From contig JAZRLW010000157.1 in NCBI GenBank assembly GCA_045647025.1, positions 1 through 40,807 of the forward strand: a DNA stretch of 40,807 nt, written 5' to 3'. The number at the start of each line of letters is the position of its first letter. Position 1 is the first letter of the stretch. Of this stretch, positions 8,202-27,470 are shown one piece after another. Under the pieces are notes generated by a model, which was not told the origin of the DNA, did no database searches, and worked only from the letters and a program-made list of their open reading frames with translations. This DNA comes from Eubacteriales bacterium. GTDB taxonomy: Bacteria; Bacillota; Clostridia; Oscillospirales; UBA644. The translations under genes and the position numbers were made by a program.

Positions 8202-8226
8202 ATTCCAATTTCTCAAATAGCACAAA

Positions 8227-10154: not shown

Positions 10155-10160
10155 ATTAAA

Positions 10161-10195
10161 AGTATCCGCCCTTAAACAGGCGGATACTTCTCTTT
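10161..10195. terminator. Bidirectional terminator between convergent glmS and the DUF4037 gene
   Basis: Stem agtatccgcc (10161-10170) pairs with ggcggatact (10179-10188). It is preceded by an A-rich run and followed by a T-rich run. Confidence 0.7.
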
Positions 10196-11114
10196 ATCCC
10201 ATTATATGTTCGCCCCGAATATCGGGGTTCTTTATTTTTTTAGCTATTTCAAAGGCGTGAGCCTCAAGTGAGGTACTGTTATCCGAGATAAGTCCTTGAT
10301 TGGCCATTTCTTTGGAGATTGCGGCCGCTATATCCTCAATTATTTCGGCCTTAATACCGCCGCCATCACCCACGTTTGGCTCGGACAGAAGAAACTCCAA
10401 AGGCTCCGCCATATCAGAAAGCAAAGAAAGCTCTCTCATAGCCCTGAACATCCATTTGTAATATGGCATATATCTTCGGTTAAGAAGAAAAATCACTTCT
10501 GCCGCGTTTTGAACAAACTCAGACAGAGCTATTCCAGCCGCACCCTTTTCTCCATGGGCAAGACAGCGTGAAAAGTTATACTGTCCTGACTGGCCAGCAA
10601 AAATAGCGTGACGGCTTATTCTTTTCAATCTCACCTCTTCGGGCATTCCCGTCAGGATGGTATTTCTTATGGAAGTAAAAAGGCCGTTTCCGTCATAAAA
10701 GACTTCTCCGTTGACAGCCTCTGCAAAATATGACGAGGGGGTATACATCCAATCGTTAATAGTCTCGGGAGCACCTCTTCGCCCCGTATATTCCATATAA
10801 AAATCCCCCACCGACACAACTCCGCGATAGAAAGACCCTTCAGCGCTTTTTTTAGCAGATGAGCCGTTTTTCAGCCTTGAATAGGCTCTTTGGAGAGAAA
10901 ATCCTATCTTATCGAACACCTCATCGGTCACCCAGATAATGCAATCCTCACCGTAATCGTGGTCAACGGATATCTCATCGTCATACCCAAAGCATTCAGA
11001 CCCGTGCCCAACAAGTCCTACCGCAATATATGGCATATAATCGGAGAAATCCCTCTCCAACATGAGCTTTACCTCTTGCTCAAAAAAACGCCGGGCAATT
11101 TCAATCCCTTTCAT
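10194..11114 (-). CDS. Pol-beta-type nucleotidyltransferase / DUF4037-like protein
   Basis: N-terminal NTase signature GLVGHGSECFGYDDEISVDHDYG. I prefer ATG 11114, 7 nt after GAGGG. This start overlaps the upstream TPR gene's stop by 14 nt. Confidence 0.65.
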   Translation of the reverse strand: MKGIEIARRFFEQEVKLMLERDFSDYMPYIAVGLVGHGSECFGYDDEISVDHDYGEDCIIWVTDEVFDKIGFSLQRAYSRLKNGSSAKKSAEGSFYRGVVSVGDFYMEYTGRRGAPETINDWMYTPSSYFAEAVNGEVFYDGNGLFTSIRNTILTGMPEEVRLKRISRHAIFAGQSGQYNFSRCLAHGEKGAAGIALSEFVQNAAEVIFLLNRRYMPYYKWMFRAMRELSLLSDMAEPLEFLLSEPNVGDGGGIKAEIIEDIAAAISKEMANQGLISDNSTSLEAHAFEIAKKIKNPDIRGEHIMG

Positions 11115-11966: not shown

Positions 11967-12515
11967 TTATTTGCCGAAATATCTCTCAAGAAGACCTGCG
12001 AATGCACGGCCGTGTCTTGCTTCATCCTTTGCCATCTCGTGAACAGTATCGTGGATAGCGTCAAGGTTAAGCTGCTTTGCCATCTTTGCAAGCTCAAACT
12101 TACCTTCGCAAGCACCGTTTTCGGCAGCAACTCTCAATTCAAGGTTCTTTTTGGTGGAGTTAGTAACTACTTCACCGAGAAGCTCTGCAAACTTGGAAGC
12201 GTGTTCTGCTTCTTCGAGAGCAGCCTTTTCCCAGTAAAGACCGATTTCGGGATAACCTTCTCTGAAAGCTACTCTGGACATTGCGAGGTACATACCTACT
12301 TCGCAGCATTCGCCGTTAAAGTTAGCACGGAGACCTTCAATGATTTCGGCGGGAGCATCCTTTGCAACACCTACTTCATGCTCGGAAGCCCAGGTAACGG
12401 TATCTTCTACTACTTCTACAAACTTTTCAGCGGGAGCCTTGCAGAGAGGACAAGCCTGAGGAGGATTCTCACTTACTACTACTTCGCCGCAAACTGTACA
12501 TTTCCATTTTTTCAT
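11967..12515 (-). CDS. Reverse rubrerythrin (N-terminal rubredoxin-like domain + C-terminal ferritin-like diiron domain)
   Basis: CTVCG...CPLCKAP lies at the N-terminus. A four-helix-bundle region with E..EH-type motifs follows ([15 protein letters not shown]). The domain order is reversed relative to the rubrerythrin at 26934. Confidence 0.88.
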
Positions 12516-12546: not shown

Positions 12547-13218
12547 TTATATAAAGAAATTGTCGCGCAATATAAATCTGTTTTTACGGTAATCTATCAG
12601 CCCCGCAGCCTTCATTCTCGAAAGCTCAGCCGAAAGAGCCGTTCTGTCAGCCGCCAAAATGTCGGCCATACCCTGACGGTCGTCTGGAACGTCGAATTCC
12701 TTGTCCCCTGCCCTCTGGTACATATCCGTAAGATAAGACGTTATCTTTTCCCTGAGGTTGTGTCGGGAAACGTATCTCAACCTATTAAGAAGATTAAGCT
12801 GTTCGCCGCTCATCATCGTCAGCAGATTAAACATCATCTTTTTGTGTGAATCACAATAGTTGTCACAGCCCCAGAGAATGGTGTTAGCATCTATGAGCAA
12901 CGCCTCGCACCCTTTATTCCCCGCGTGGACGGTCAGCCCATCTCTCGTGTCCGGAAGCGCAACCGCCAGCCCGAAAATTTCTCCTATACCCGCTACGGTC
13001 ACCGCATAGGAATGCCCCAGTGTATCAGTACGTCGGGTTTCAGCTCTGCCGGTTACCACTATCCCCGCCCTGCTTATAGGGTCACCGAAGGATAATATTT
13101 TTTCACCCGGCTCAAAGCTGCTGACAACAGCTCCCGTGCATCGGAGTATCTTTTCAACCTCTTCACTGCTGTGCCCACGGAACAGAGGAATGGACATTGC
13201 TTTTTCTAAAACTGTCAT
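12547..13218 (-). CDS. Crp/Fnr-family transcriptional regulator
   Basis: cNMP-binding-like beta-barrel (IPLFRG....FEPGEKI..GD) and a C-terminal HTH (RQGMADILAADRTALSAELSRMKAAGLI). Only 31 nt separate it from the downstream rubrerythrin gene. Confidence 0.88.
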   Translation of the reverse strand: MTVLEKAMSIPLFRGHSSEEVEKILRCTGAVVSSFEPGEKILSFGDPISRAGIVVTGRAETRRTDTLGHSYAVTVAGIGEIFGLAVALPDTRDGLTVHAGNKGCEALLIDANTILWGCDNYCDSHKKMMFNLLTMMSGEQLNLLNRLRYVSRHNLREKITSYLTDMYQRAGDKEFDVPDDRQGMADILAADRTALSAELSRMKAAGLIDYRKNRFILRDNFFI

Positions 13219-13260
13219 TCTTTTACCTCGTTTCGTTGTCTACACAACCTTGGTGAGGAT

Positions 13261-13289
13261 AGTATATCATACTTTTTGCAAAAATGCAA
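13261..13289 (-). promoter_or_regulatory. Promoter of the Crp/Fnr-reverse rubrerythrin operon
   Basis: Read on the minus strand: TTGCAT (13289-13284), 17-nt spacer, TGaTATACT extended -10 (TATACT = 13266-13261). Confidence 0.5.
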
Positions 13290-13303
13290 TAGGTTTTTGC
13301 AAA
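13273..13303. promoter_or_regulatory. Two TTTTTGCAAA elements 21 bp apart (candidate operator)
   Basis: TTTTTGCAAAAA (13273-13284) is a perfect 12-bp palindrome. TTTTTGCAAA recurs at 13294-13303. The first copy fills the spacer of the minus-strand promoter. Confidence 0.4.
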
Positions 13304-13357
13304 TTTCTTTGTGAATTTTTTGTGACGCACCAAGAATTGATTTATAAAAATTATCCC

Positions 13358-13386
13358 TTGCTTTTTTCTGCGCACTATGGTATAAT
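13358..13386 (+). promoter_or_regulatory. Promoter of the module A RR-kinase operon
   Basis: TTGCTT (13358-13363), 17-nt spacer, TGgTATAAT (TATAAT 13381-13386). Confidence 0.5.
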
Positions 13387-13417
13387 GGTAGCAACACAAA
13401 TTTCGAAGGATAAACAA

Positions 13418-14143
13418 ATGACCTACAAAATAGCCATATGTGATGACAGCGCAAAAGACACGCAATACGTCGCTGATATCGTCAATCGATGGGGATATGA
13501 AAATTCTGCCGCCTTGAGCATAAAAAGATTCTCCTCTGCAGAAGCCTTTCTCTTTAATTATGAAGACGAAAAGGATTTTGATATTCTATTGCTTGATATA
13601 GAAATGAACAGGATAAACGGTATCGACCTGGCAAAGCAGATAAGGGCTGTGGATAGTACCGTTCAAATCATATTCATTACAGGATATCCCGATTTTATAT
13701 CGGAGGGCTACGACGTTTCCGCCCTTCACTATCTTATGAAGCCGGTAAAAGAAGACAAACTTTTCTCGGTTCTTAACAGAGCAACCCAAAACATAAACAA
13801 AGCAGATGTTCATATACTTATCCAATCCGGCGGAGAACAGATAAAGCTCTCTGTCAAGAAAATCAAATACGTAGAAGCAGCATCTCATATGTTACGTATA
13901 TGCGCCGAAGATAAAGTCTATGAAACAAGAATGACCATAGCAGAAGCCGAGAAAAATTTAAGTGACGGATTTATACGCTGCCATAGGTCTTATCTTGTAA
14001 ATATCCGACACATATCCCAAATATCAAAGACTGACGTTATACTTGACGGAGGAGAAATGGTTCCTCTTGCAAGAAGTGCCTATAAAGACGTAAATCAAGC
14101 ATTCATCAAATACTATACGGAGTCACAAAATGAAGTTATTTGA
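13418..14143 (+). CDS. LytTR/AlgR-family response regulator (RR-A)
   Basis: Receiver domain (IAICDD, LLLDIEM..NGI, MKPV) plus a LytTR DNA-binding domain (CHRSYLVNIRHI). The true start is ATG 13418 after AAGGA. The listed 13136 extension runs through the divergent promoter region. Confidence 0.9.
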   Translation: MTYKIAICDDSAKDTQYVADIVNRWGYENSAALSIKRFSSAEAFLFNYEDEKDFDILLLDIEMNRINGIDLAKQIRAVDSTVQIIFITGYPDFISEGYDVSALHYLMKPVKEDKLFSVLNRATQNINKADVHILIQSGGEQIKLSVKKIKYVEAASHMLRICAEDKVYETRMTIAEAEKNLSDGFIRCHRSYLVNIRHISQISKTDVILDGGEMVPLARSAYKDVNQAFIKYYTESQNEVI

Positions 14144-14810
14144 CCTCATATTCGGGCGTGCCATAGACCGCCGCATAGCCGCATATCAAAATGACCTTAT
14201 AACGAAACATTGCGACGAGGTACAGAACATCTACAAGACTATGCGCGGCTGGAGACACGACTATCATAACCACATCCAAACGATGCTTGCCCTCACGGAT
14301 AAGCCCCAAGAGATGAAAGAATATCTCCTTATGCTTAACGATGACCTTACCACCGTAGACACTGTAATAAAGACGGGGAACGTAATGGTTGATGCCATAT
14401 TAAACAGTAAGCTTTCACTGATAAAAAGCAGAGATATATCCGTGAACGCAAAGGCGGTAGTCCCCCCATCTCTTGAAATCTCTCAAATAGACCTCTGCGC
14501 CATAATCGGCAATCTTCTCGATAACGCTATGGAAGCCTGTTTGAGGATAGAGGATAAAGAAAAAAGATTTATCCGTATATTCATAGGTATACTCAAAGGA
14601 CAACTGTATATCTCCGTAACAAATTCTATGGGAAACAGTATACATAAAAACGGAGCATCCTACGTATCGTCCAAGACAGATACAGAATCAGGCCTGGGAC
14701 TTATGCGCATAGATAGGCTCGCGGATAAATATCAAGGATTCGTGAACAGACAACACGAGGACGATATCTTTGCCACTGAAGTTATGCTGCCATTAAACAA
14801 CTCACGCTAA
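14130..14810 (+). CDS. Soluble GHKL histidine kinase of the AgrC/HPK10 type lacking a membrane sensor domain (HK-A)
   Basis: H-box WRHDYHNHIQTM, N-box IIGNLLDNAMEA, G-box SGLGLMRIDRLADKY. No hydrophobic segment is present. The start overlaps the RR-A stop by 14 nt. Confidence 0.85.
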   Translation: MKLFDLIFGRAIDRRIAAYQNDLITKHCDEVQNIYKTMRGWRHDYHNHIQTMLALTDKPQEMKEYLLMLNDDLTTVDTVIKTGNVMVDAILNSKLSLIKSRDISVNAKAVVPPSLEISQIDLCAIIGNLLDNAMEACLRIEDKEKRFIRIFIGILKGQLYISVTNSMGNSIHKNGASYVSSKTDTESGLGLMRIDRLADKYQGFVNRQHEDDIFATEVMLPLNNSR

Positions 14811-14816
14811 AAAACC

Positions 14817-14854
14817 AACCGTTTGCGCCAAAAACAGCACAAACGGTTATTTTC
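14817..14854 (+). terminator. Rho-independent terminator after HK-A
   Basis: Stem aaccgtttg (14817-14825) pairs with caaacggtt (14840-14848), followed by attttc. Confidence 0.6.
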
Positions 14855-14855
14855 A

Positions 14856-14864
14856 TGATATACT
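14856..14864 (+). promoter_or_regulatory. Extended -10 element for the membrane-protein/ABC operon
   Basis: TGaTATACT at 14856-14864. There is no good -35: AGCACA sits at the expected position, inside the terminator stem. Confidence 0.4.
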
Positions 14865-14901
14865 TTCATCAGAGAAATCCGATGAAGGTGTTGATGCATT
14901 T

Positions 14902-15270
14902 ATGAAATCCCCCATTAAAAACCTATACAATCGCCCCTTTTATTACGGCTGTATAGTTTGTACAATAGGCATAATAATTCTTGCAATAACTCTGTATTTT
15001 TATATAACAGACCCCTATACGAGGTTTGAAAACTCCCTTTTTCAGGGCGCAGCAGTATTCCAGGACGTTATGAATATCTTTTGGGGATACGTGGTGGCCA
15101 TATCTATTACGGTCTGCGGGCTCGCCACCTTTAACCTGTCATATCATGCCCAACGCTCCGACTACGGGAAGGTTGCTGCTGTGATAAATAAAATTTCACT
15201 TGTAATCACAGCCGCATCGGTTATTCTGGCAGTCTGGTTTACCTTACAGGTAATCTTCGCATTTAAATAA
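14902..15270 (+). CDS. Small membrane protein (about 3 TM helices), unknown family
   Basis: Three hydrophobic segments (CIVCTIGIIILAITLYFYI; IFWGYVVAISITVCGLATF; LVITAASVILAVWFTLQVIF). It is the first gene after the extended -10 element. Confidence 0.6.
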   Translation: MKSPIKNLYNRPFYYGCIVCTIGIIILAITLYFYITDPYTRFENSLFQGAAVFQDVMNIFWGYVVAISITVCGLATFNLSYHAQRSDYGKVAAVINKISLVITAASVILAVWFTLQVIFAFK

Positions 15271-15286
15271 AAAGGGGTGGAAAATT

Positions 15287-15487
15287 ATGCTGTTTTTATC
15301 ATATACAGTGGGTAAAGGCGTACTCACGGCAATGTATTTCCTTTTTACAGTTCCATTGGCAATGACTGTATTTTCGATTTTTGCAATAAAAAAACTAAAG
15401 ACTTCAGCCGACGAGCATTTCTCTGTTGAAGACATGAGAATAGAAGCCTTTAATAAAGAAAAAGAACTTGAAGAGGATGTTTATTAA
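15287..15487 (+). CDS. Small membrane protein (1-2 TM helices with an acidic C-terminal tail)
   Basis: Strong RBS (AGGGGTGG, 7 nt before the ATG). Hydrophobic N-terminal half (GVLTAMYFLFTVPLAMTVFSIFAI) and a charged tail (NKEKELEEDVY). Confidence 0.55.
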   Translation: MLFLSYTVGKGVLTAMYFLFTVPLAMTVFSIFAIKKLKTSADEHFSVEDMRIEAFNKEKELEEDVY

Positions 15488-15501
15488 GGAGTGATAAACA
15501 A

Positions 15502-17316
15502 GTGAAAGAAAAGAAAGATAAAAAGAAGAGAGAAAAGCCTGCCTATTCTCTGTTTTCCAATATACTCTTTATGAGTAAGGTGGCATGGAAAAACGAAAGG
15601 TCAATACTTTTCTCATCCATTTTAAGAATACCTCTCAACACAGCAGCATCTATGATGTCTGCCTATTTGGCAAAGGTTGCAGTTGATTTTATCATAGACG
15701 GAATTACTCCGCAAAAATACGTTCTTTATATAGGGGGATTATTGCTGCTTATTACCTTTATCAATATTATTTCAGGCATAACCTATGGCGACGTAGCTAA
15801 AAAGAGTATACTTAATCGCTTCAGATACACCGAAATGTGGTCGGATAAAATGATGGAACTTGACTACGGCCATCTCGAAAGTCCTGACGTCAGTAATCTG
15901 GCAAAAAGGTCAAAGGGATACATGGGAGGTAATTTTCTTCAGATGTTCGATAACATCTTCGGAGGATTTGCCGACCTCACGACAATAGGCACATTTTCGG
16001 CCTTATTACTGGCACTTAACCCGCTACTCTTCATCCTTATAGTGGGAATGACGGCTCTTGACTTTTACGTAGGTACCCTGACAAATAAATGGGTAACAAA
16101 AAACTATAAAACTCTTACAAAAATAAACAACAAAAGAAACTATCTTAAAAGCAAATCGGCGAGCTTTAACCATGCAAAGGATATCCGCCTTTACGGAATG
16201 AAGGGCTGGATCATGTCTGCATTCAAAGAACTGAACGACCGTTATATATATTGGTTTAAAAAGGAAATGAGAGTTACGTATGCCGTCAGGGCTTTGGGAC
16301 ATCTTATGACCCTTATACGTGATTTAACGGGATACGTATTCCTTATTTTTTCCATAGCAAACGGAAAGATATCCGCAGGTGATTTTGTATTCTACACCGG
16401 GATAATAACCCAATTACACCAAAATCTCAGTTATGTATCCGAAAGGCTAAAAACGCTTAACAAAACAAGCATTGAAATGTCCGAGCTGAGATCTTTCCTT
16501 GACATCCCCGAGGTCTTTACCCAAGATAAAGGGCAGCCTATCCCCACCGAAGCTCCCGAAATAGTCTTTGAAAACGTTACCTTCCGTTATCCTAAAGCAG
16601 AGGATGACACCATTAAAAACGTTTCATTTCGTATTAAAAAGGGTGAAAAGATTGCCCTTGTTGGACGTAACGGCGCGGGAAAGACCACCCTTGTTAAGCT
16701 CATCTGCGGGCTTTACCACCCCACGTCGGGTAAAATATACGTTAACGGAAATGAAATAACCGATTACAATAAGAAAGAATATTTTTCTCTTATTTCCGCG
16801 GTATTTCAGGATATTAACGTTATGCCCCTGTCAATATCGCAGAACGTTGCAATGAAGATTAAGGGAGAAATTAATGAGGAAAAGGTTACCCAATGCCTTA
16901 TAAAGGTCGACCTTCAGGATAAGATACAGTCTTTACCCAACAAGGAGCAAACCGTTTTAGGTAAGAGCTTTTTTGAAGGAGCCATAGATCTCTCGGGCGG
17001 TGAGATGCAAAAGCTTGCCCTGGCAAGAGCCATATACAAGGAAGGTAAGATCATAGTCCTTGACGAGCCCACCGCAGCTCTTGACCCCATAGCAGAACAT
17101 AATATGTATGTAAAATACAGTGAACTTGTTTCGGGAGCAACGTCGGTCTATATCTCTCACAGATTGGCTTCAACCCGATTCTGCGATAGAATACTTCTCC
17201 TTGACGAGGGCGTTATAAAAGAAAATGGTACCCACGAGGAGCTTATGGCAAATAAGGGTATATATGCTGAAATGTTCGATATGCAAAGCTATTACTATAA
17301 GGAGGAAGTAAAATGA
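15502..17316 (+). CDS. ABC exporter, fused permease + ATP-binding protein (module A, subunit 1)
   Basis: N-terminal 6-TM domain. Walker A GRNGAGKTT, signature LSGGEMQK, Walker B IVLDEPTAALD, H-loop YISHRL. GTG start 10 nt after AAGGAG. Confidence 0.9.
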   Translation: MKEKKDKKKREKPAYSLFSNILFMSKVAWKNERSILFSSILRIPLNTAASMMSAYLAKVAVDFIIDGITPQKYVLYIGGLLLLITFINIISGITYGDVAKKSILNRFRYTEMWSDKMMELDYGHLESPDVSNLAKRSKGYMGGNFLQMFDNIFGGFADLTTIGTFSALLLALNPLLFILIVGMTALDFYVGTLTNKWVTKNYKTLTKINNKRNYLKSKSASFNHAKDIRLYGMKGWIMSAFKELNDRYIYWFKKEMRVTYAVRALGHLMTLIRDLTGYVFLIFSIANGKISAGDFVFYTGIITQLHQNLSYVSERLKTLNKTSIEMSELRSFLDIPEVFTQDKGQPIPTEAPEIVFENVTFRYPKAEDDTIKNVSFRIKKGEKIALVGRNGAGKTTLVKLICGLYHPTSGKIYVNGNEITDYNKKEYFSLISAVFQDINVMPLSISQNVAMKIKGEINEEKVTQCLIKVDLQDKIQSLPNKEQTVLGKSFFEGAIDLSGGEMQKLALARAIYKEGKIIVLDEPTAALDPIAEHNMYVKYSELVSGATSVYISHRLASTRFCDRILLLDEGVIKENGTHEELMANKGIYAEMFDMQSYYYKEEVK

Positions 17317-19178
17317 AAAAGAATAGACTTTCCCTTAAACTTATAGCACGCAGCCTTAAGGAGATACATTACATACGCAAAGGATATATGGCCATAAGCT
17401 TGCTTGACGCCGCCTGGGAGGCGTTCCATACATATCCTTCTATATGGATGTCCGCAATACTGTTGGATGCCGTAGCAAGAGGAGAAGATATTAAAACACT
17501 TCTGACCTATGCAATAATTACTGCCGGAGTAGATTTTATCACTCGAGGAATACGCGAGGTATTTCGTTATCTTCAACGCACAGCCGATAGAGAGTTTGAC
17601 GAACAGTACGCTATCCGTTTCTCCCAGTTTAATCTCGATACGGATTACTCGTATATCGAAAATCCCGCTACTCACGAGCTTCGGCGCAAGGTAAACAGAT
17701 TTAAAAACTACAGTAATCAAGGTATACTGTACACGTTCAACTCTTTCCGTAATATTATGTACGGAATCGTTAACCTCATCCTTGCAACGGCTTCAATAAT
17801 TCCCTTTTTCCTTGTTTCGACGTCGGGCGCCGAAACAGCCGGAATAATAGCCTTTGCGGCTTCGCCATTGGCCTCGGCAATAATAGTTGTCATCGTTATT
17901 ATGAGAGCCGTATTCCAGCTCTTCATGACCGCATATGGAGAAAAGTACTGGACAAAATTCAATAAAGAGATCGAGAGCTTCGATAAAATATACAGCCACT
18001 ATATAAAGAGGATTTCTGACCCAAAGATGGGAATGGATATTCGCATATACGGTCAAAGAAAGATAATCGAAGAAGAGATTGAAGGCGTTTTCGTGGATTG
18101 GACAAAAGCAAAAAAGCGTATTCAAAACAAGAACACCCTTCTTGACAGTATATGGTATATATCGCATCTGTTACTATCCGTATGCTCTTATATTTTCATG
18201 GGATTAAGAGTGCTTGCAGGATTGTTTGGAGTAGGTTCTCTACTAAAATATGTCAAGCTTATATCTAACTTCAACAATTCTGTCTCTGAGGTCACATGGG
18301 GAATTGCAAGTTTGGCAACCAATACAGAAGCCTTGGAATTATATTTTGAATATATAGACCACCCCTCCGAAATGCATAAGGGTGTTCTTCCCGTTGAAAA
18401 GCGCATACTCTGCGACGGCGGAGACAAGGACTATGAAGTAGAGTTTAAAAACGTATCTTTTAAGTATCCAGGATGCGATAACTATGTACTTAAAAACGTA
18501 TCTCTGAAATTTAAAATCGGTGAAAAACTTGCCGTGGTAGGTATGAACGGTAGCGGCAAGACCACCTTCATTAAGTTACTTTGCCGCCTTTACGACCCCT
18601 CCGAAGGAGAAATACTTCTCAACGGCATAAACATCAAAAAGTACGACTACGACGAGTATATGTCTATCTTCTCTGTAGTATTTCAGGATTTCAAGCTATT
18701 TTCATTTACCCTCGGTCAAAACGTAGCAACAAGCTCCGAGTATGACCCCGAAAGGGTAAAGGAATGTCTTGAACAGGCAGGTATGGGAGAGAGATTTGAG
18801 CAACTCGAAAACGGCGCGGAGACCTTCCTTTACAGGGACTTTGAGGAAGAAGGGATACAGATATCGGGAGGCGAAGCTCAAAAGATAGCTCTCGCAAGAG
18901 CCCTTTACAGAAACGCTCCCTTCGTTATTCTGGACGAACCCACCGCAGCTCTTGACCCTGTAGCCGTGTTTGATATATACTCCCGTTTTAACAGCATAGT
19001 GGGAGATAGAACCACCATATACATAAGCCATAGACTGTCCTCCTGCAGATTCTGTGATAGTATTATGGTGTTCCACGAAGGCTCCGTAATTCAGCGAGGA
19101 ACTCACGACGAGCTTATGGAAAATACAGACGGTAAATATTACGAGCTGTGGACTTCTCAGGCACAGCACTATTCATAA
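17313..19178 (+). CDS. ABC exporter, fused permease + ATP-binding protein (module A, subunit 2)
   Basis: Walker A GMNGSGKTT, signature ISGGEAQK, Walker B VILDEPTAALD, H-loop YISHRL. ATGA overlap with subunit 1. Confidence 0.9.
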   Translation: MKKNRLSLKLIARSLKEIHYIRKGYMAISLLDAAWEAFHTYPSIWMSAILLDAVARGEDIKTLLTYAIITAGVDFITRGIREVFRYLQRTADREFDEQYAIRFSQFNLDTDYSYIENPATHELRRKVNRFKNYSNQGILYTFNSFRNIMYGIVNLILATASIIPFFLVSTSGAETAGIIAFAASPLASAIIVVIVIMRAVFQLFMTAYGEKYWTKFNKEIESFDKIYSHYIKRISDPKMGMDIRIYGQRKIIEEEIEGVFVDWTKAKKRIQNKNTLLDSIWYISHLLLSVCSYIFMGLRVLAGLFGVGSLLKYVKLISNFNNSVSEVTWGIASLATNTEALELYFEYIDHPSEMHKGVLPVEKRILCDGGDKDYEVEFKNVSFKYPGCDNYVLKNVSLKFKIGEKLAVVGMNGSGKTTFIKLLCRLYDPSEGEILLNGINIKKYDYDEYMSIFSVVFQDFKLFSFTLGQNVATSSEYDPERVKECLEQAGMGERFEQLENGAETFLYRDFEEEGIQISGGEAQKIALARALYRNAPFVILDEPTAALDPVAVFDIYSRFNSIVGDRTTIYISHRLSSCRFCDSIMVFHEGSVIQRGTHDELMENTDGKYYELWTSQAQHYS

Positions 19179-19197: not shown

Positions 19198-19234
19198 AAA
19201 AAAAACGGTAAGCTTTCAAGCTTACCGTTTTTTC
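19198..19234. terminator. Bidirectional terminator between convergent ABC and HK-B genes
   Basis: aaaaaaaacggtaagctt-tca-aagcttaccgttttttc: a perfect palindromic stem flanked by an A-run and a T-run. Confidence 0.85.
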
Positions 19235-19245
19235 ATTTTTGAATT

Positions 19246-20523
19246 TTAAACCGGCAATATGACCCTAAGAGAAAACACACCGCCATTTGCGGCAAATTCA
19301 CACAACCCACCGTGCTTTTCGGTAATGGCACATATACTCTGACAGCCATACCCATGCCCCTCTTGGGATGAGATGGGGATTCCGTCCTTTATTTGGATAT
19401 TATCTTTGCAGGGGTTCTTGATTTCTATAAGAAGCTTCCCGTCCTTAACCTCGCAGTAAAGATCAACCTTACCTGGCAACGAGGGAGTTTCTTCAAGGGC
19501 GTGAATGGCATTTTCAAGTCCGTTTGAAAGAAGCGAGCAAAGCTCTGTATCGGGAATGGAAATATCTTTTGGTATTCTGGCGTAAACGGAAAGCTCTATG
19601 CCGCCTTTATCGGCCTTTGAAGTAAAATAGGAACAAAGAAGATTGATAGCCTCGTTTTCGCAAAATCTCTTTTGGGATACAGCCTCGATATCCGAATGCA
19701 CCTTTTTTATGTATTGACGGGCCTGTTCGCTGTTCCCCGAAGAAAGCATTCCATCAAGCATATTGAGGTGATGGCGCATATCGTGTCTGTAAATAGCCGT
19801 TTGACTTGCAGAACGGTGAAGAACCTCCATCTCCACCTCTGCCTGCCGTAAAGACGACTCCACCGCTGCCCGCTGATTTTCGGCAGACAAACGGTTCTGG
19901 GTCTGTACGTGATAAGCAGCCACGAATATGATGTAGAAGATAATTGTAGCGGTGGGAAGAAACTCATTAAGAGCCTTTATTCCCGAATAAAGCATATCGG
20001 AATATACCGCCGTAGCGTAATCAAAAAGGTAATATGCTACGGGCAGGCTTCCAAAAAGGAGAAGGGTGCGGGTAGAATAGGTCATTGCGTGGTATGCGGC
20101 TTTTGTAAAAAAGCGGGAAAGTAGGTAATAAATAACGCCTATAAACAGCGTATAAGTAATCTGCTCCACAAGCTCCGACTTTGTAATAACGAAGGAGACA
20201 AGATTGACCCAGCGGGGTAGCTGACAGCAAAGATAGGCAGTACATACACTGACTATTGCAACGCCCACGGGCTTTTTCAACACAAGAACCAAAACCAAAA
20301 TTATTGGAAGATGTATCAGCACCGGATAGATAAACCTAACCGTATCTGTGCCCCATACAAACCATCCCACCCCCTGCGCTGCAAGAAAAGCACCGGCAAG
20401 CACGAATACCGTTATCTTTTGTCCTATGGCTGTCAATCCTCCAGCTACATTCATGCTTAAAAACACGCCGAACAGAAGTATCAAACAGTAATTGAAGACT
20501 TCAAGTATATCTACAAAATTCAT
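19246..20523 (-). CDS. AgrC-like polytopic sensor histidine kinase (GHKL, HPK10 type; HK-B)
   Basis: The N-terminal ~200 aa carry 6-7 hydrophobic helices. H-box YRHDMRHHLNML, N-box LLSNGLENAIHA, G-box GHGYGCQSI. Confidence 0.9.
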   Translation of the reverse strand: MNFVDILEVFNYCLILLFGVFLSMNVAGGLTAIGQKITVFVLAGAFLAAQGVGWFVWGTDTVRFIYPVLIHLPIILVLVLVLKKPVGVAIVSVCTAYLCCQLPRWVNLVSFVITKSELVEQITYTLFIGVIYYLLSRFFTKAAYHAMTYSTRTLLLFGSLPVAYYLFDYATAVYSDMLYSGIKALNEFLPTATIIFYIIFVAAYHVQTQNRLSAENQRAAVESSLRQAEVEMEVLHRSASQTAIYRHDMRHHLNMLDGMLSSGNSEQARQYIKKVHSDIEAVSQKRFCENEAINLLCSYFTSKADKGGIELSVYARIPKDISIPDTELCSLLSNGLENAIHALEETPSLPGKVDLYCEVKDGKLLIEIKNPCKDNIQIKDGIPISSQEGHGYGCQSICAITEKHGGLCEFAANGGVFSLRVILPV

Positions 20524-20529
20524 CAGTGC

Positions 20530-21255
20530 TCACCTCTTCTTTCTGTCAAAAATCAGTTCTATATAATTCTTCCGCAGTTGAGGATAAAATGATCTTGATA
20601 CGGGAACAGTTCTCCCCGAGTTGGTCACAGCTCCCGAAGGAGAAAGCTCCGAAATACGGAGCATATTAACGATGTATGATCTATGGACCTGCATAAAACT
20701 TTCAAAAGAGATCAACAGGTCCCTATATTCGTTCATAGATCCGAATATCTCGTGAAAAGAGCCGTCGGCAAGATAAAAATAAAGATGCTTGCCGTTTATT
20801 TCAACATATTCAATCAAAGACACGGGCACACGAACAATGGTTGCGCCTTTTTTTAAAATCATAGAGGGGCAGGAACTCTGCTCTGCAAAATACAACTCAT
20901 CAAGAAACGGAATAAGTCTTTCCTGATTAACCGGCTTCAATATATAATCGGTTGCCTTGACTGAATAACTCTCATAGGCAAACTCTGGAGAGGAGGTTAA
21001 AAAAACTATACGGGCAGTACCATCCGTCGCACGAAGTTCCTTTGCAACAGATATACCGTTAATCCCCGGCATAACCACGTCAAGAAGATACAGGTCAAAC
21101 TTCTCCTTCTCGGAGGATTCTATCAAATCAAGAGGATTGAGAAAAGTGCGGTACCGCAGTTGAGCTTCAGGGTGGGAATTTCTCCATATCTCAAGGACGG
21201 AGACTATACGTCCAATCTCATCCACTACGTCATCACATATTGCAATGTACACCAT
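20530..21255 (-). CDS. LytTR-family response regulator (RR-B)
   Basis: IAICDD, YLLDVVMPGINGI, LKPV and the LytTR motif VHRSYIVNM. I prefer ATG 21255, 8 nt after GAGAGG, to the listed GTG 21264. Confidence 0.9.
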   Translation of the reverse strand: MVYIAICDDVVDEIGRIVSVLEIWRNSHPEAQLRYRTFLNPLDLIESSEKEKFDLYLLDVVMPGINGISVAKELRATDGTARIVFLTSSPEFAYESYSVKATDYILKPVNQERLIPFLDELYFAEQSSCPSMILKKGATIVRVPVSLIEYVEINGKHLYFYLADGSFHEIFGSMNEYRDLLISFESFMQVHRSYIVNMLRISELSPSGAVTNSGRTVPVSRSFYPQLRKNYIELIFDRKKR

Positions 21256-21291
21256 GTACACCACCTCTCATATATCATTTTTGCCGGGCTA

Positions 21292-21320
21292 ATTATACCA
21301 TAAAAACAGAGCGATAGCAA
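21292..21320 (-). promoter_or_regulatory. Promoter of the RR-B/HK-B operon
   Basis: Read on the minus strand: TTGCTA (21320-21315), 17-nt spacer, TGgTATAAT (TATAAT = 21297-21292). Confidence 0.55.
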
Positions 21321-21330
21321 TACCGAAATT

Positions 21331-21365
21331 TACATTTCAGGACGAAAATATATACATTTCAAGAC
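21331..21365 (+). promoter_or_regulatory. Direct repeat, candidate LytTR regulator binding site
   Basis: TACATTTCAGGAC (21331-21343) and TACATTTCAAGAC (21353-21365) share 12/13 identity and start 22 bp apart. The pair lies between the two divergent promoters. Confidence 0.55.
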
Positions 21366-21392
21366 AAAAAGCGTCGGAAGCTTTATTTTTCA

Positions 21393-21401
21393 TGATATAA
21401 T
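21393..21401 (+). promoter_or_regulatory. Extended -10 of the RR-C promoter (weak -35)
   Basis: TGaTATAAT at 21393-21401. The -35 position (21373-21378, GTCGGA) is poor and begins 7 bp after repeat 2, the geometry expected of an activator-dependent promoter. Confidence 0.5.
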
Positions 21402-21436
21402 GAAATTGAAAAAAGATAAAAGAGGAGGTTTGTCAC

Positions 21437-22171
21437 ATGATAAAAATTGCCATATGCGATGACAATATCTCTACGCTGGACAGCATGTACAATCTTATCG
21501 ACAAGTACGGCAAGGGACACGGGCTGAGCGTAGACTGCCAGAAATTCCACAGCCCTCTTGACTTGATCGCTGAAATAGAAAGGGGCGCAAAATATGACGT
21601 TCTCTTTATGGACGTACTGATGCCCGGCGAAAACGGAATAGACACCGCAACGGAAATACGCAATTACGACAGTACCGTAAAAATCATCTTCCTTTCATCT
21701 TCTTCTGACTTTGCAGTACAGTCCTATTCTGTGGGAGCCTACTACTATCAGCTTAAGCCCGTATCACAAGATATATTTTTCAAACTGATGGATTCTGTAC
21801 TTTCTGCATGTGAACAGGAAAAATCCAACAGCCTGATCCTCCGATGTAAAAGCGGCATAACCAGAATAGAATTCAAGAGATTGGAGTATTGCGAGGTAAT
21901 ACACCGTACCCTCTTTTTTCACTTATCTGACGGCAATATTCTTGAAAGCATAGGAAGCATGGACGATCTTTACAGCCGCCTTGCTGATAAGGGCGTTTTT
22001 TTGCGTCCACACAGATCATATCTTGTAAATATGGACTACATAAGAACTATGTCTTATAAATCCATCGTTATGATGTGCGGAGATGAGATTCCTCTCCCCA
22101 GAGGGAAATACAGCGAACTTAAAAACTGCTTTATGGAATACTCCTTCAAGAATCACTATCCCGTGTTCTGA
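21437..22171 (+). CDS. LytTR-family response regulator (RR-C), paralog of RR-B
   Basis: IAICDD, LFMDVLMPGENGI, LKPV, HRSYLVNM. It shares blocks with RR-B (MPGxNGI, FL(T/S)SS..FA..SYSV.A..Y.LKPV). Strong RBS AGAGGAGG. Confidence 0.9.
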   Translation: MIKIAICDDNISTLDSMYNLIDKYGKGHGLSVDCQKFHSPLDLIAEIERGAKYDVLFMDVLMPGENGIDTATEIRNYDSTVKIIFLSSSSDFAVQSYSVGAYYYQLKPVSQDIFFKLMDSVLSACEQEKSNSLILRCKSGITRIEFKRLEYCEVIHRTLFFHLSDGNILESIGSMDDLYSRLADKGVFLRPHRSYLVNMDYIRTMSYKSIVMMCGDEIPLPRGKYSELKNCFMEYSFKNHYPVF

Positions 22172-22222
22172 CATTTCATGGACAAGTTGTCAAAGAATGT
22201 CGATTTGATACATTTCAGGTTC
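22171..22222 (+). promoter_or_regulatory. Two further copies of the ACATTTCA box upstream of the TM2 gene
   Basis: ACATTTCATGGAC (22171-22183) and ACATTTCAGGTTC (22210-22222). TATAAT lies at 22262-22267, with a weak -35 (TTTCAT, 22239-22244). Confidence 0.35.
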
Positions 22223-22314
22223 GATTGATACAAAAATCTTTCATCCCCTCGAAATAAATACTATAATATTAATAGGTCTAATGACTACATAAATAAAGTA
22301 GGAGGAAAAATTTC

Positions 22315-22518
22315 ATGAGCAAAATAGCTGCTATTTTAATCACCTTCTTTCTGGGCGGGATGGGTATCCATCGTTTCCTTGCAGGTAAGGTAGGCACCGG
22401 CATCATCTGGCTTGTTACCGGCGGTGTTTTCGGTATTGGTTGGCTTATCGACTTTATTCAGGTTTGCCTCGGCAAGTTCACCAAGAAAGACGGCACACCC
22501 TGGGTTACTGAAGGCTAA
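22315..22518 (+). CDS. TM2 domain-containing small membrane protein
   Basis: Typical TM2 pattern FFLGGMGIHRFLAGKVGTGIIWLVTGGVFGIGWLIDFI. Strong RBS AGGAGG. Confidence 0.85.
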   Translation: MSKIAAILITFFLGGMGIHRFLAGKVGTGIIWLVTGGVFGIGWLIDFIQVCLGKFTKKDGTPWVTEG

Positions 22519-22633
22519 GATCTTCTCATTTTCATTTTTTGTATAAACATGTAGCGGAGCGGTATATGCGGCATATCTGCCGTGTAACCGCACCGTTGCA
22601 TTTTGCCACATATCATAGAAGGGAATTACTACC

Positions 22634-23392
22634 ATGTCAGAAACAATTAAAACAAAAAAAACTCCAGATGAGATATTGGAACTTATAGTTGTTATCATGC
22701 TTGGCATTACTGCTCTCTTTACCGCTTGGGGCAGCTGGATAGGAAGCCTTCACGGCGGTGAACAGGCTACCAGTTATACCACCAGCAACAACCTTGCATC
22801 CGAAGGCAACTCTGAATACAACGCAGGCGTACAGCAGATGAACCAGGATATGCTTCTCTGGAACGACGTCAGCGATATGCAGATGGAAATAATCTTCGCT
22901 CAGGGTAGCGAAGATACCAACACCGTAGAAAAAGTATGCTATCAACTTCTTTACAAGCTTGATGAAAACCTTAGCGAAAGAATGGCGGCAGAAATTGGTT
23001 GGAACTACTATCTCTCCGAAGAAGATTATGCAGACCCCACGGCTACGGTTCTTGCCTGGATGGAAACCGATGCTGCATTCACTTCTCCATTTTTTAGTGA
23101 GGACTATGTAAACGGATATTTTGAAACGGCAAACGAGCTTCTCGCACAGTCCCAGGAAGTTCTTGAAAGCGGTAAAACATCCAATGCCAACGGCGACGCA
23201 TTCGGTCTCGTTACAGTTATTTACAGCGTTGTTCTTTTCCTTTTAGGTATTGTCAGTTCCTTTAACAGCACCAAAAACAAGTTTGCTATTGTTGCTATAT
23301 CTCTTGCGGCATTCCTTTTCGCAACCATTTATATGTTCACCATTCCCATGCCCAACGAGTTTAACTTCGCAAGCTTTTTCACGGGTGCATAA
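22634..23392 (+). CDS. Membrane protein (N-terminal TM, long acidic helical exo-domain, two C-terminal TMs); DUF4337-like architecture
   Basis: Hydrophobic segments LIVVIMLGITALFTAWGSWIGSL, LVTVIYSVVLFLLGIVSSF and FAIVAISLAAFLFATIYMFTI. The family assignment is tentative. Confidence 0.65.
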   Translation: MSETIKTKKTPDEILELIVVIMLGITALFTAWGSWIGSLHGGEQATSYTTSNNLASEGNSEYNAGVQQMNQDMLLWNDVSDMQMEIIFAQGSEDTNTVEKVCYQLLYKLDENLSERMAAEIGWNYYLSEEDYADPTATVLAWMETDAAFTSPFFSEDYVNGYFETANELLAQSQEVLESGKTSNANGDAFGLVTVIYSVVLFLLGIVSSFNSTKNKFAIVAISLAAFLFATIYMFTIPMPNEFNFASFFTGA

Positions 23393-23425
23393 TTGTAAAG
23401 CACGCTATTTGTACTGCTGTTTGAG

Positions 23426-23449
23426 TACATTTTAGGTACGTTTCAGAAC
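23426..23449 (+). promoter_or_regulatory. Two adjacent box-like elements upstream of the lipoprotein gene
   Basis: TACATTTTAGGTA (23426-23438) and TACGTTTCAGAAC (23437-23449), which overlap by 2 nt. TATAAT at 23479-23484. The -35 position starts 6 bp after the second element. Confidence 0.35.
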
Positions 23450-23530
23450 AAATACGATCTTTATCAAAAATTAAAGTTTATAATGTGAATAAGTAACAGA
23501 TTACATAACTAACTTTTGGAGGATATTTCA

Positions 23531-23863
23531 ATGAAAAAAATTATCGCAACAGTATTACTCGCAGTTTTCTGCCTCTCTTTTGCAGCTTGCGGAGGCACCG
23601 ATAAGCAGCCCGCTATCGACGCTTTCAACGCTACCAGCCAGAACTTTAACGAGCTTGCTACAGCAATCAATGCTGATATTGAAGCCTATGACGAAGAAGT
23701 TGTTACTACCTTGACCGATATGGCTAACCTTCTCGCTCAGTATCAGGAAATTCTTTCCGGCGACCAGGAGATCGCCCAGGAAAATCTCGATGAGATGATC
23801 GCTTGGTTTGCTGACGTTGACGAATGGGTAGACGCTGTTAAGGCTGAACTCGGCGTTGAATAA
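23531..23863 (+). CDS. Small acidic lipoprotein, unknown family
   Basis: Lipobox LSFAAC|GG after MKKIIATVLLAVFC. The mature part is helical and acidic. I prefer ATG 23531, 8 nt after GGAGG, to the listed TTG 23516. Confidence 0.75.
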   Translation: MKKIIATVLLAVFCLSFAACGGTDKQPAIDAFNATSQNFNELATAINADIEAYDEEVVTTLTDMANLLAQYQEILSGDQEIAQENLDEMIAWFADVDEWVDAVKAELGVE

Positions 23864-23883
23864 TATTTAATTCGATTTCAGGC

Positions 23884-23912
23884 GGGCGCGGATTTACCGC
23901 GCCCACTTTTTT
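23884..23912 (+). terminator. Rho-independent terminator between the lipoprotein and protease genes
   Basis: Stem gggcgcgg (23884-23891) pairs with ccgcgccc (23897-23904), followed by acttttttc. Confidence 0.85.
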
Positions 23913-23944
23913 CGCTTTCTGAATTTATACTAAAAGGTGATCTT

Positions 23945-25906
23945 ATGAAAAAGATTTCGGCACTTATTTTGGCAATCGTAATGATACTGTCATTTTGCGC
24001 CTGCGACGCCCTGCTTGAAGAGGACTGGGGCGGCGACGGTATAATAGACGGACAGGCAAAAAGCGAATGGGCAGTATATTGGTACCTTTGCGGTAGCGAC
24101 CTTGAAACCAACGGGGGCTTTGCAACAACTGACCTCATTGAAATGATGGAAGTACAGCTTCCCGAAGACGTTAACGTAGTTATTCAGACGGGCGGCGCCG
24201 CAGTATGGCAAAACGATCTTATGGACGCTTCAAAACAACAGCGCTGGCTTTACAATAAAGACGGACTGCAGCTTCTGGAAGAGCAGGAATTGGCTAATAT
24301 GGGCGAGGCCCAGACCCTATATGAATTCCTGTATTTTGCAAATAAAAACTTTCCCGCAGAAAAGGTTGCCGTTACATTCTGGAACCACGGCGGCGGCTCG
24401 GTAAGCGGCGCGGCCTTTGACGAGGTATACGGGCTCGATTCTCTTGACCTTGTAGAGATGTATCAGGCCTTTGATGCCGTATGGCCTGCAAACGCAGACT
24501 CACCTGCTCTTGAACTCGTAGGCTTTGACACCTGCTTAATGGCAACGGTAGACGTTGCTTCAGTATTCAGCAACTTCTCAAAATACCTTGTTGCATCCGA
24601 AGAAGTGGAACCCGGTAACGGCTGGTTCTATTCGGGATGGATGGGAGAACTGGCAAAGGATCCTTCTATGAACGGCGAAAAGCTTGGTATAGCTATCTGC
24701 AACTCCTACTACGAAGGCTGTGAGGCCGTAGGAACCCAGGATCAGACCACTCTTTCTCTTACCGACCTTACGAAGATCAAGCCCTTACTTGATGCTTACG
24801 AAACCTTCGGTCAGGAAGCATTGGTGGCGGCATCCGAAGACCCCGGATTTTTTGCTGTATTCGGAAGAGCCGCAACACAAAGCGAAAACTACGGTGGCAA
24901 TACGAGAGAGCAAGGATATACCAATATGGTGGACCTTGGACATCTTGCCAGACTCACCGCCTGGATGTTGCCTTCTGCCCAAAGCGTTTGTGATGCCCTT
25001 AATGAATGTGTGGTCTACAAGGTCAACGGTCCCTACCGTTCCGAGGCTACGGGCTTAAGCTGTTATTACTCCTATAACGGCGACATATCCGACCTTAACG
25101 GCTACATTAACGTTGGCGCAAGCCTGGCGTTCAAGCACCTCTACGCATACGGAATTACGGGAGAGCTCGCCGAGGGCGGAAATGAATATCTCAACACGCT
25201 CGACATAGACTATTTGCCCGAGCTGGTTACCCTTGCAGATATGGATTGGGACGGAGCACCCCTTGACCTTAACGACGAGGGCTCGACGATCCTTACCCTT
25301 GGTGAGGACGCATGTAATATTCTTGCAGGTATAGGATTTTCATTATATTATGTAGACGAAGAAACGGATACCATGTTGTGGCTGGGAACAGATAACGACA
25401 TTATTGCAGACTGGGATAACGGTATCTTTTACGATAATTTCCGCGGCGTATGGGGTGCAATAGACGGAAATCTTGTATTTATGGAGCTCTCCTTTGAGGG
25501 CGAAGATTATAACCTTTACTCCGTACCCGTTCTTCTTAACGGTGAACTATACAACCTGCAGGTGGTATACGACTTTACTGCCGAGGAATGGTCTGTACTG
25601 GGCGCATCCCAAGGCCTTGACCAGTCAGGTATGGCAAGCAAGGAGCTACGCATCCTCCGGGCAGGTGACGTTATAACAACCATCTGGAAGATGGCCTCCT
25701 ATTCGGGGGACGACGACTTTGAGATGTACACTGTAGCCGATATTCCCGTTACTGAATACACAACTTTCGGCGAAGCTCCCCTCTTCGACGGCAGCTACGC
25801 TATGGTATTTGAAATGTGGGACGCGGCAGGCAATTACGCCTACTCCGACAAAGTAACCTTTGATTGCTACGACGGTGAAATCTGGACCACGGTATACGAA
25901 GATTAA
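23945..25906 (+). CDS. Clostripain-family (peptidase C11) lipoprotein with a ~250-aa C-terminal extension
   Basis: Lipobox ILSFCAC|D. C11 catalytic His context TFWNHGGGS and catalytic Cys context VGFDTCLMA. Confidence 0.85.
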
Positions 25907-26933: not shown

Positions 26934-27470
26934 ATGGAACTTAAAGGCTCAAAGACAGAACAGAATCTCCGCGCCGCATTCTCGGGAGAAAGTGAAGCTA
27001 GAAACAAATACACCTATTTCGCGGGAATTGCAAAGCAGGAAGGCTATGAACAGATAGCCGCCATATTTGAAGAAACCGCATCAAACGAAAAGGAACACGC
27101 TGAACAGTGGTTTAAGGAACTGCAGGGTATCGGCACAACCCCCGAAAACCTGAAAAACGCCGCTGCCGGCGAAAACTACGAGTGGACCGAAATGTACGCA
27201 ACCTTTGCAAAAGAGGCAGAAGAGGAAGGATTTTTCTCAATCGCTGCAAAATTCAGAAAAGTTGCGGAAATCGAGAAGGCTCACGAAGAAAGATTCAAGA
27301 TTCTTCTCAACAACGTCCAGATGCAGCAGGTGTTCAAAAAGAGCGGCGAGGTTCTTTGGATATGCAGAAACTGCGGACACCTTGTAATGGGCACAGAGGC
27401 ACCTATGATGTGTCCCGTATGTGCGCATCCCCAAGCGTATTTTGAAATAAAAGCCGAAAACTATAAATAA
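26934..27470 (+). CDS. rbr: Rubrerythrin (classical order: N-terminal diiron domain, C-terminal rubredoxin-like domain)
   Basis: [13 protein letters not shown] and EKAHEERF diiron motifs, with C-terminal CRNCGH...CPVCAHP. Confidence 0.92.

Follow-up and report, generated by a model that had tools for sequence, protein, structure and literature searches.

Two operator classes and a proposed two-tier LytTR cascade in a clostridial locus for envelope proteins

The 40,807-nucleotide contig JAZRLW010000157.1 of a Eubacteriales bacterium (assembly GCA_045647025.1; this whole 40.8-kb stretch is called the window in the following) carries at positions 19246-25906 a module of seven genes, which encode a sensor histidine kinase (HK-B), two LytTR response regulators (RR-B and RR-C), a TM2-domain protein, a protein with three transmembrane (TM) segments (T3), an acidic lipoprotein, and a lipoprotein protease of the clostripain family (C11). 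The gene families, the synteny, and two distinct classes of operator with their positions are established. They are best accounted for by a two-tier cascade, in which HK-B would act on RR-B, RR-B on transcription of the RR-C gene (rrC), and RR-C on the genes for envelope proteins; we give this reading somewhat better than even odds (a probability of roughly 0.55). Within it, we infer how regulators pair with operators and in which direction control runs, as well as the phosphodonor, the signal, and the output, which would be the remodelling or processing of surface proteins.

A first interpretation of this DNA, made from the letters alone (here the sequence-only reading), had described the module as one regulon marked by a common box. 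All seven open reading frames (ORFs) lie where it placed them, and Pfam bears out its family assignments (Response_reg, LytTR, HATPase_c_5, TM2, Peptidase_C11), leaving T3 and the lipoprotein without a family (Table 1). HK-B and RR-B indeed form one operon, being encoded on the same strand with a gap of 6 nt and RR-B upstream; RR-C is, as proposed, a divergently transcribed paralogue, encoded on the opposite strand and 37% identical to RR-B. Literature searches returned no published description of a system with this gene set, in keeping with the same reading, which knew of none. Of the box-marked regulon, the regulon proved real, as matrices built from foreign sites find operators here, but the single motif did not, as these operators fall into two classes.

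Two operator classes and their regulators

The originally proposed 13-mer box, with up to three mismatches, is matched 15 times in the window, against 11.6 matches expected, and is thus not enriched; five of these matches cluster on the + strand within three intergenic regions. Its 8-mer core ACATTTCA occurs 9 times against 1.5 expected, a count reached in none of 100 shuffles. The signal becomes clear only with full operators. For these, 80 genomic loci encoding T3 homologues were gathered, together with contigs carrying homologues of HK-B, T3, and RR-C (L-numbers denote such related loci in other genomes). Two matrices were trained exclusively on foreign sites, a B-type matrix on those of L088, L090, L092, and L004, and a C-type matrix on those of L008, L009, L013, and L048. 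In 40.8 kb they find exactly one B-type and two C-type sites; the next best match scores 8.5 bits for the B-type matrix (maximum in shuffled sequence, 13.3 bits) and 4.9 bits for the C-type matrix (10.4 bits). The L007 site orthologous to the second C-type operator scores 23.2 bits, close to its counterpart in the window.

The two classes differ in architecture: the B-type element is bipartite and has the form (T/G)(A/G)CATTTC(A/G)GG, an AAAA-containing spacer, then ATACATTTCA.G; the C-type element is tripartite, with three units spaced by 10-11 bp over 33 bp (for example GTCGATTCAGTACATTTTCGGTACGATTCAGG). In both, the outer repeat units lie 21-22 bp apart, forming direct repeats about two helical turns apart that abut the -35 region. 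All three operators of the window end 29-30 nt before a TATAAT, a spacing similar to that of most operators in the relatives; the B-type operator, which reads toward rrC, ends 30 nt before the one at 21396-21401, and the two C-type operators end 30 nt before those at 22262-22267 (the TM2 promoter) and 23479-23484 (the lipoprotein promoter).

Across the relatives, each class keeps to its own regulator group. B-type sites are confined to the neighborhood of RR-B orthologues (L088, L090, L092, and L004, with a repeat recognized by eye in L001); their orientation is always such that they point from the RR-B operon to the divergent gene. In most RR-B loci they lie 27-30 nt from the -10 element, as in the window. 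C-type sites are confined to RR-C loci, where they are found at the promoters of T3, TM2, the lipoprotein, C11 (L048), and rrC itself (L008). In four loci that were not used for training (L094, L010, L101, and L102), C-type sites score 35-43 bits, three of them directly after HK-C, the kinase that follows RR-C in many relatives (see below). About 1.1 Mb of foreign T3 loci yielded no spurious C-type match and a single marginal B-type match (16.7 bits, L076). The classes never mix and follow the regulator group over at least 15 loci; a cascade in series therefore fits better than one shared regulon.

The regulators divide in the same manner. RR-B groups with its orthologues in L088, L090, L092, L004, and L001, and the LytTR domains of the RR-B and RR-C groups, which are two well-separated orthologous groups, are only 25-34% identical, compatible with different DNA specificities. 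Both proteins have a Response_reg and a LytTR domain and conserve the DD pair, D59/D62, the Ser/Thr, and the Lys; in RR-C the phosphorylation residues are intact throughout (the acid pocket, D59, the Ser/Thr stretch FLSSS, and K107). Their best NCBIfam matches are BtsR and LytR, all well under cut-off. A scan of metagenome contigs with RR-C gave no close relative, and a look-up of its exact sequence no further contig.

HK-B has the makeup of an HPK10-type kinase: a HATPase_c_5 core with an N box and GHGYG, a SpoOB-like DHp domain with the motif YRHDMRHHL, and a polytopic N-terminus of about 205 residues with about 6-7 hydrophobic or TM segments (by eye and hydropathy). It has more than 2600 homologues, several of which (P0035, P0036, and others) are 670-672 aa long and combine Response_reg, LytTR, and a GHKL kinase in one protein; in these, either regulator and kinase are fused or a stop codon between rrB and hkB was missed. 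The promoter of the rrB-hkB operon looks constitutive, and extended -10-like TGATAAAAT motifs are seen by eye at the equivalent spot 5' of the RR-B operon in L004, L001, and L090.

Table 1. Genes, operators, promoter, and terminators of the module, with coordinates in the window.
Feature	Coordinates	Strand	Evidence and remarks
Intrinsic bidirectional terminator between ABC exporter genes and HK-B	19199-19234	.	15-16 bp stem, T runs on both strands
HK-B, sensor histidine kinase	19246-20523	-	HATPase_c_5 2e-12; weak SPOB_a match (below cut-off)
RR-B, Response_reg + LytTR regulator, cognate of HK-B	20530-21264	-	Pfam; likely start ATG 21255
rrB-hkB operon promoter, near-consensus sigma-70	21292-21320	-	TTGCTA-17-TGnTATAAT; 10/12 matches, extended -10
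B-type bipartite operator (putative), TTACATTTCAGGAC-GAAAATATA-TACATTTCAAGAC	21330-21365	+	32-35 bits, matrix from foreign sites
RR-C, Response_reg + LytTR regulator of the RR-C orthologous group	21437-22171	+	Pfam; no kinase of its own here
C-type tripartite operator (putative), GTCGATTTGATACATTTCAGGTTCGATTGATAC	22199-22231	+	32 bits, matrix from foreign sites
TM2-domain protein, 67 aa, 2 TM segments	22315-22518	+	PF05154 2e-16
Stem-loop between TM2 and T3	22549-22601	+	-38.8 kcal/mol, z = -5.2
T3, 252 aa, three TM segments	22634-23392	+	no Pfam family
C-type tripartite operator (putative), GCTGTTTGAGTACATTTTAGGTACGTTTCAGAA	23416-23448	+	23.5 bits, matrix from foreign sites
Acidic lipoprotein, 110 aa, signal peptide and lipobox	23531-23863	+	no family
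Single box unit, TTCGATTTCAGGC	23871-23883	+	only box unit ahead of C11
Intrinsic terminator between lipoprotein and C11	23884-23904	+	8 G-C pairs and T run; strong
C11 (clostripain-family) lipoprotein protease, 653 aa	23945-25906	+	Peptidase_C11 1e-37

Output genes, relatives, and alleles

The genes downstream of rrC encode proteins of the cell envelope. The TM2-domain protein scores 60.1 bits with its Pfam family, against a cut-off of 27.9. Between it and T3 lies a hairpin with a weak U tract after it, for which Rfam has no match (nor does any Rfam family match elsewhere in the window); L007 has a hairpin and a T run at the same place. This element is likely an attenuator or partial terminator; as an attenuator, or else as a processing or stability element, it could set the ratio of TM2 to T3. 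T3 belongs to a family of more than 1150 clusters (mean column identity 67% in a 23-member alignment), and its AlphaFold model is all-helical with a pLDDT of 89.8, the helical domain between TM1 and TM2 presumably being outside the cell. Foldseek gave no T3 match in the PDB below E = 0.05, with TM-scores mostly <0.3 and at most 0.48; given such weak results, no functional analogy is drawn.

Homologues of the lipoprotein are encoded after T3 in L013 (34% identity, E = 3e-11) and L008. In L093, a further lipoprotein of 219 aa is encoded between T3 and the lipoprotein gene (L093:4462-5121); this paralogue of the window lipoprotein (55% identity) contains an internal duplication. C11 has a signal peptide, a near-canonical lipobox, and about 290 C-terminal residues without an assigned family. 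It scores 130.6 bits with PF03415, against a cut-off of 25.8, and in alignment, its motifs FWNHGGG and GFDTCLM correspond to those of the catalytic His and Cys in clostripain (9cip), and NHGGG and FDxCLM also align to the C11 zymogen 6mzo; it is not a clostripain equivalog, reaching only 28.5 bits with TIGR02806, against 550. In PADLOC, the output proteins had no defence-system match.

In the closest T3 loci (L008, L009, L013, L048, and L094; T3 77-82% and the RR-C orthologue 53-62% identical), RR-C is followed by a kinase of its own with about seven TM segments, HK-C, and the same pair is found in L101 and L102. HK-C is 36% identical to HK-B over the full length. It is absent from the window and from the two closest relatives of the window, L007 and L093, in all of which rrC is divergent from rrB-hkB. 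The one-kinase, two-regulator layout, which the sequence-only reading took for a designed branch, is accordingly better described as a derived loss, as RR-C has its own kinase in the relatives. The rrC promoter, which has a C-type operator in L008, has a B-type operator in the window, L007, and L093; the rewiring appears to be visible here as an operator swap, with a presumably autoregulatory C-type element at rrC replaced by a B-type one. The resulting hybrid layout (HK-B, RR-B, divergent RR-C, TM2, T3, lipoprotein) is kept in three divergent alleles. L102, from a Roseburia metagenome-assembled genome, has an extra LytTR regulator directly 5' of RR-C and HK-C (8121-11003); two regulators with one kinase thus recur there in another form.

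Where RR-B orthologues occur without this hybrid layout (L088, L090, L092, L004, and L001), the kinase is about 55% identical to HK-B and the B-type operator faces the gene for a single-pass membrane protein of about 100 aa, p100, of which the window has no homologue. This is followed by a SHOCT protein and C11 in L088, by SLH proteins in L004 and L092, and by an 823-aa protein in L090; an HK-B orthologue of 55% identity adjoins p100, a SHOCT protein, and a C11 that is 70% identical to that of the window. By eye, p100 had seemed LemA-like, a candidate assignment that was rejected, as an hhalign comparison with LemA proteins reached a probability of 10%, confined to the TM segment. C11 orthologues of 70-75% identity adjoin an HK-B-type pair in L088 and HK-C-type pairs in L008, L009, L013, L048, and L094. 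In other genomes, orthologues of the kinase/regulator pairs are linked to C11, TM2, and lipoprotein homologues; the lack of such linkage, which the sequence-only reading had named as a refutation, was not observed.

Over a wider range, the neighborhood of T3 was counted in 25 T3 loci that have 9.5 kb or more of flanking sequence on either side. Within 4.75 kb of T3, a LytTR regulator is encoded in 8/25 loci, a GHKL kinase in 9/25, and C11 in 7/25; in the next 4.75 kb, all three counts are 0. TM2 is not enriched near T3 at this phylogenetic range (2 vs 3). In the close clade, TM2 with a C-type operator is found in L009, L101, the window, L007, and L093, in the first two of these after HK-C. In the relatives, the output set further includes LemA, an Ion_trans channel, a LysM protein of 1004 aa, and zinc-ribbon proteins with DUF4428 or SHOCT; most of these are membrane-anchored or surface proteins. 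The channel, a small voltage-gated-type cation channel of about 280 aa, lies directly beside T3 in 12/80 loci (for example L009:934-1779 and L048:10775-11608), independent of two-component genes. Upstream of the regulators, L102 has genes for Ddl, Acyl_transf_3, and alanine racemase, and L101 (3531-8520) for VanY/M15, a beta-lactamase-family protein, and an ABC-F protein, which hints at a cell-wall context.

Compared with L093, the window is a mosaic. From about 22700 rightwards (T3, lipoprotein, and the start of C11) the DNA is 97-100% identical, and in the Crp gene 96.6%, against 45-85% across HK-B, RR-B, RR-C, and TM2; at the protein level, HK-B is 64%, RR-B 49%, and RR-C 70% identical. L007 has a third allele of the regulator cassette (compared over 19200-22700). 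The divergence between alleles is uniform along HK-B and not restricted to its sensor domain. To judge by these alignments, the regulator cassette behaves like an allele exchanged between otherwise near-identical genomes. The HK-B frame of L093 (206-1480) has an in-frame stop, which makes it a pseudogene or reflects a sequencing error.

Upstream of HK-B, the window has a second LytTR module (13136-19178), with the regulator RR-A, which really starts near 13424, the GHKL kinase HK-A (14130-14810; 226 aa, soluble, no TM segments), a 122-aa 3-TM protein (14902-15270), and a pair of ABC exporter genes (15502-19178) that lack a C39 domain. In L007 and L093, HK-B is directly beside the Crp-family gene; this block of about 6 kb was therefore either gained in the window or lost from both relatives. 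Two rubrerythrin genes (11967-12515 and 26934-27470) flank the region; they have opposite domain order, with the rubredoxin-like domain N-terminal in one and C-terminal in the other, and their neighbors are a Crp-family and a MarR-family regulator, respectively.

The proposed cascade and its alternatives

In the proposed cascade, HK-B would perceive a conserved cue through its domain of about seven TM segments and activate RR-B, which, once phosphorylated, would bind the putative B-type operator and activate the divergent promoter of rrC. RR-C would in turn bind the two putative C-type operators and turn on TM2, the acidic lipoprotein, and, by read-through of the attenuator hairpin, T3; C11 would be reached only by read-through of its terminator or from a weak promoter of its own. 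Since HK-C has been lost here, RR-C would have to receive its phosphate from HK-B, from an unlinked kinase, or from a small phosphodonor such as acetyl phosphate, or else act by its induced concentration. For the last of these there is a precedent in ComE of Streptococcus mutans, which activates its promoter without its kinase when it is constitutively expressed (PMC12323615).

Several observations weigh against this cascade. T3 has no operator of its own in the window, and C11 lies behind a strong terminator, has no full operator, and is absent in L007; its membership in the regulon rests here on synteny. The repeat units of the two classes are alike (CATTTCAGG vs CGATTCAGG), such that cross-binding is possible, and the rrC promoter of L013 has a bipartite-looking site though there is no RR-B nearby. 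The B-type operator abuts the -35 element of the RR-B promoter and could therefore serve mainly autoregulation. Operators are assigned to regulators by their co-occurrence. In the alpha-1 helix, RR-C shows no convergence toward RR-B (a comparison by eye), and as it has kept all its phosphorylation residues, it probably needs a kinase. Finally, the contig comprises only 40.8 kb, and HK-C or agrBD may lie unlinked to it.

The latter point bears on the nature of the signal. A sensor with about seven TM segments, a HATPase_c_5 core, and a LytTR partner are shared with AgrC/AgrA and VirS/VirR (PMC2688746); a C11 protease is under the direct control of VirR, with agrBD as the presumed source of the VirS signal (PMC2838878, PMC2688746). 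By analogy, HK-B could be the receptor of a cyclic peptide of the AgrD type, with the agrBD genes for it lying outside the visible 40.8 kb of the genome. We consider such VirSR-like quorum sensing very unlikely. Neither AgrB (PF04647) nor a C39 peptidase domain was found in the 37 ORFs of the contig scanned with Pfam (all plausible genes except a 372-aa ORF at 39656-40774), in line with the sequence-only reading, which had already noted that AgrB, AgrD, and a C39 exporter are absent. Nor is there an AgrD on the contig: the two intergenic regions of the module that are long enough for one (21265-21436 and 22519-22633) have no credible small ORF of this type, the others being 67-142 bp long. Pfam likewise called neither AgrB nor AgrD in twelve related loci with precomputed gene tables. 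With the AgrA model NF046049, which has a cut-off of 400, RR-B reaches 48 bits and RR-C 45 bits; HK-B had no match among the AgrC models of NCBIfam at E <= 0.01. The VirR-box pattern is not enriched (see below). Over 102 orthologues, HK-B is as conserved in its TM domain (54.8% identity) as in DHp (54.1%) and CA (52.7%), with 82 of 205 membrane-domain columns at least 90% conserved. Sensor domains of AgrC are hypervariable, the opposite pattern. A sensor domain that does not diverge faster than the kinase core argues against a pheromone receptor of the Agr type; the locus is not an Agr quorum-sensing locus, and the label Agr-like that it was first given is a weak one. We favor a conserved cue that HK-B would sense in or at the membrane, and which is probably not a strain-specific peptide. 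The sequence-only reading had further speculated that the surface protease generates or destroys this cue, possibly from the acidic lipoprotein; such a role for the protease is not supported.

Two further explanations concern the relationship between the regulators. HK-B might, as the sequence-only reading supposed, phosphorylate both RR-B and RR-C, which would then read a shared TACATTTCAGGAC-like box at three promoters and be redundant or compete with each other. This would suit a single kinase beside two intact receiver domains, all the more as HK-B is a full-length paralogue of the missing HK-C, and the units of both operator classes have a common core, (C/A)(A/G)TTTCAGG; it is nevertheless unlikely, given that the two operator architectures track the regulator group, that the LytTR domains have diverged so far, and that RR-C normally has its own kinase, the layout having come about by gene loss. 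Alternatively, the two systems may have nothing to do with each other, HK-B/RR-B regulating itself and distant targets, and RR-C either using an unlinked kinase or decaying, with adjacency meaningless for HK-B. The contact between the B-type operator and the RR-B promoter would be explained in this way, and juxtaposition by recombination is plausible, as the regulator cassette resembles a recombination hot spot; yet the operator faces the divergent gene in every RR-B locus examined, mostly at the same spacing, the hybrid layout has been kept in three alleles whose regulators differ by 30-50%, and RR-C has retained all its functional residues along with intact C-type operators, which makes two unrelated modules quite improbable.

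Beyond the cascade itself, there is a broader idea, which we put forward tentatively and consider doubtful at present: that the kinases with about seven TM segments and their LytTR partners in Lachnospiraceae-like and other Clostridia (more than 2000 clusters each for HK-B and RR-C) form a large, undescribed superfamily dedicated to envelope surveillance. Its systems would control small membrane proteins (TM2, T3, LemA, SHOCT, p100) together with one large surface effector, be it a C11 protease, an SLH protein, or a LysM protein; in this lineage, two paralogous systems would have been fused into a cascade through kinase loss and operator swap, and the exchange of cassette alleles between near-identical genomes would indicate that the signalling step is under diversifying selection. 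Gut Clostridia are rich in LytTR two-component systems; to our knowledge, experimental work on them comes almost entirely from the pheromone systems of pathogens (Agr, Com, Blp, VirSR). For commensal Lachnospiraceae-type bacteria, the locus and its relatives provide a regulon that can be tested, with predicted operators, defined promoters, and outputs at the cell surface, where a tethered C11 protease is of the kind that could act on host or bacterial surface proteins. They would also provide a clean natural example of network rewiring, by loss of a kinase and replacement of an autoregulatory operator by that of a paralogous system; if cassette swapping between near-identical genomes is general, the idea of signalling "alleles" would extend beyond peptide pheromone loci.

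Comparison with known systems

The components of the module and their logic are familiar; the operator-level rewiring and the breadth of the family are the notable part. The closest precedent is VirS/VirR in its control of ccp in Clostridium perfringens. VirR has a DNA-binding domain of the LytTR type, reportedly described by Nikolskaya and Galperin in 2002. VirS has 6-7 TM segments, and no peptide genes are linked to the pair (PMC2838878, PMC2688746); VirR binds two imperfect direct repeats just 5' of the -35 region and directly controls the C11 gene ccp (PMC2838878), which encodes alpha-clostripain; of the VirR targets, ccp alone is conserved in every strain tested (PMC2838878, PMC2688746). 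By these described features, the module resembles it in the topology of the kinase, the lack of linked peptide genes, and, presumably, a C11 gene among the targets. It differs in having two regulators, proposed to act in series, genes for TM2, T3, and a lipoprotein, a lipid-anchored protease, a conserved sensor domain, and no known agrBD; there is also no sign of regulatory RNAs such as VR-RNA, virT, and virU. The box sequence is different as well: the VirR-box pattern, taken as CCAGTTNTNCAC-like, is matched three times in the window at one mismatch, against 1.85 expected, and not at all in the module.

With Agr (AgrBDCA), the module shares an HPK10-type polytopic kinase and a LytTR regulator, as well as direct repeats about 21-22 bp apart beside the -35 region; the repeats of AgrA are spaced by about 21-22 bp. 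It differs from Agr in that it has no AgrB, AgrD, or hypervariable sensor and does not reach the AgrA and AgrC models, in that the rrB/hkB promoter looks constitutive, and in that the outputs are envelope proteins. ComE is a LytTR-family regulator. The streptococcal ComDE and BlpRH systems likewise place LytTR regulators on direct repeats, and over-expressed ComE, being active without its kinase (PMC12323615), is the precedent for an induced orphan RR-C; unlike those systems, the module has no pheromone gene and no C39 ABC exporter.

LytSR and BtsSR (YehUT), to which the best, sub-threshold NCBIfam matches of the regulators point, also control small membrane proteins and are not quorum sensors; HK-B differs from their kinases in lacking a 5TM-LytS, GAF, or His_kinase domain, and the scores of the matches lie far under the equivalog cut-offs. 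In two-component cascades with orphan regulators, finally, expression of the next tier's regulator is switched on by the first system, and this regulator no longer has a kinase of its own, as proposed here. What sets the present case apart from such cascades in general is that both tiers are paralogous LytTR regulators, and that the operator swap can be seen at the rrC promoter.

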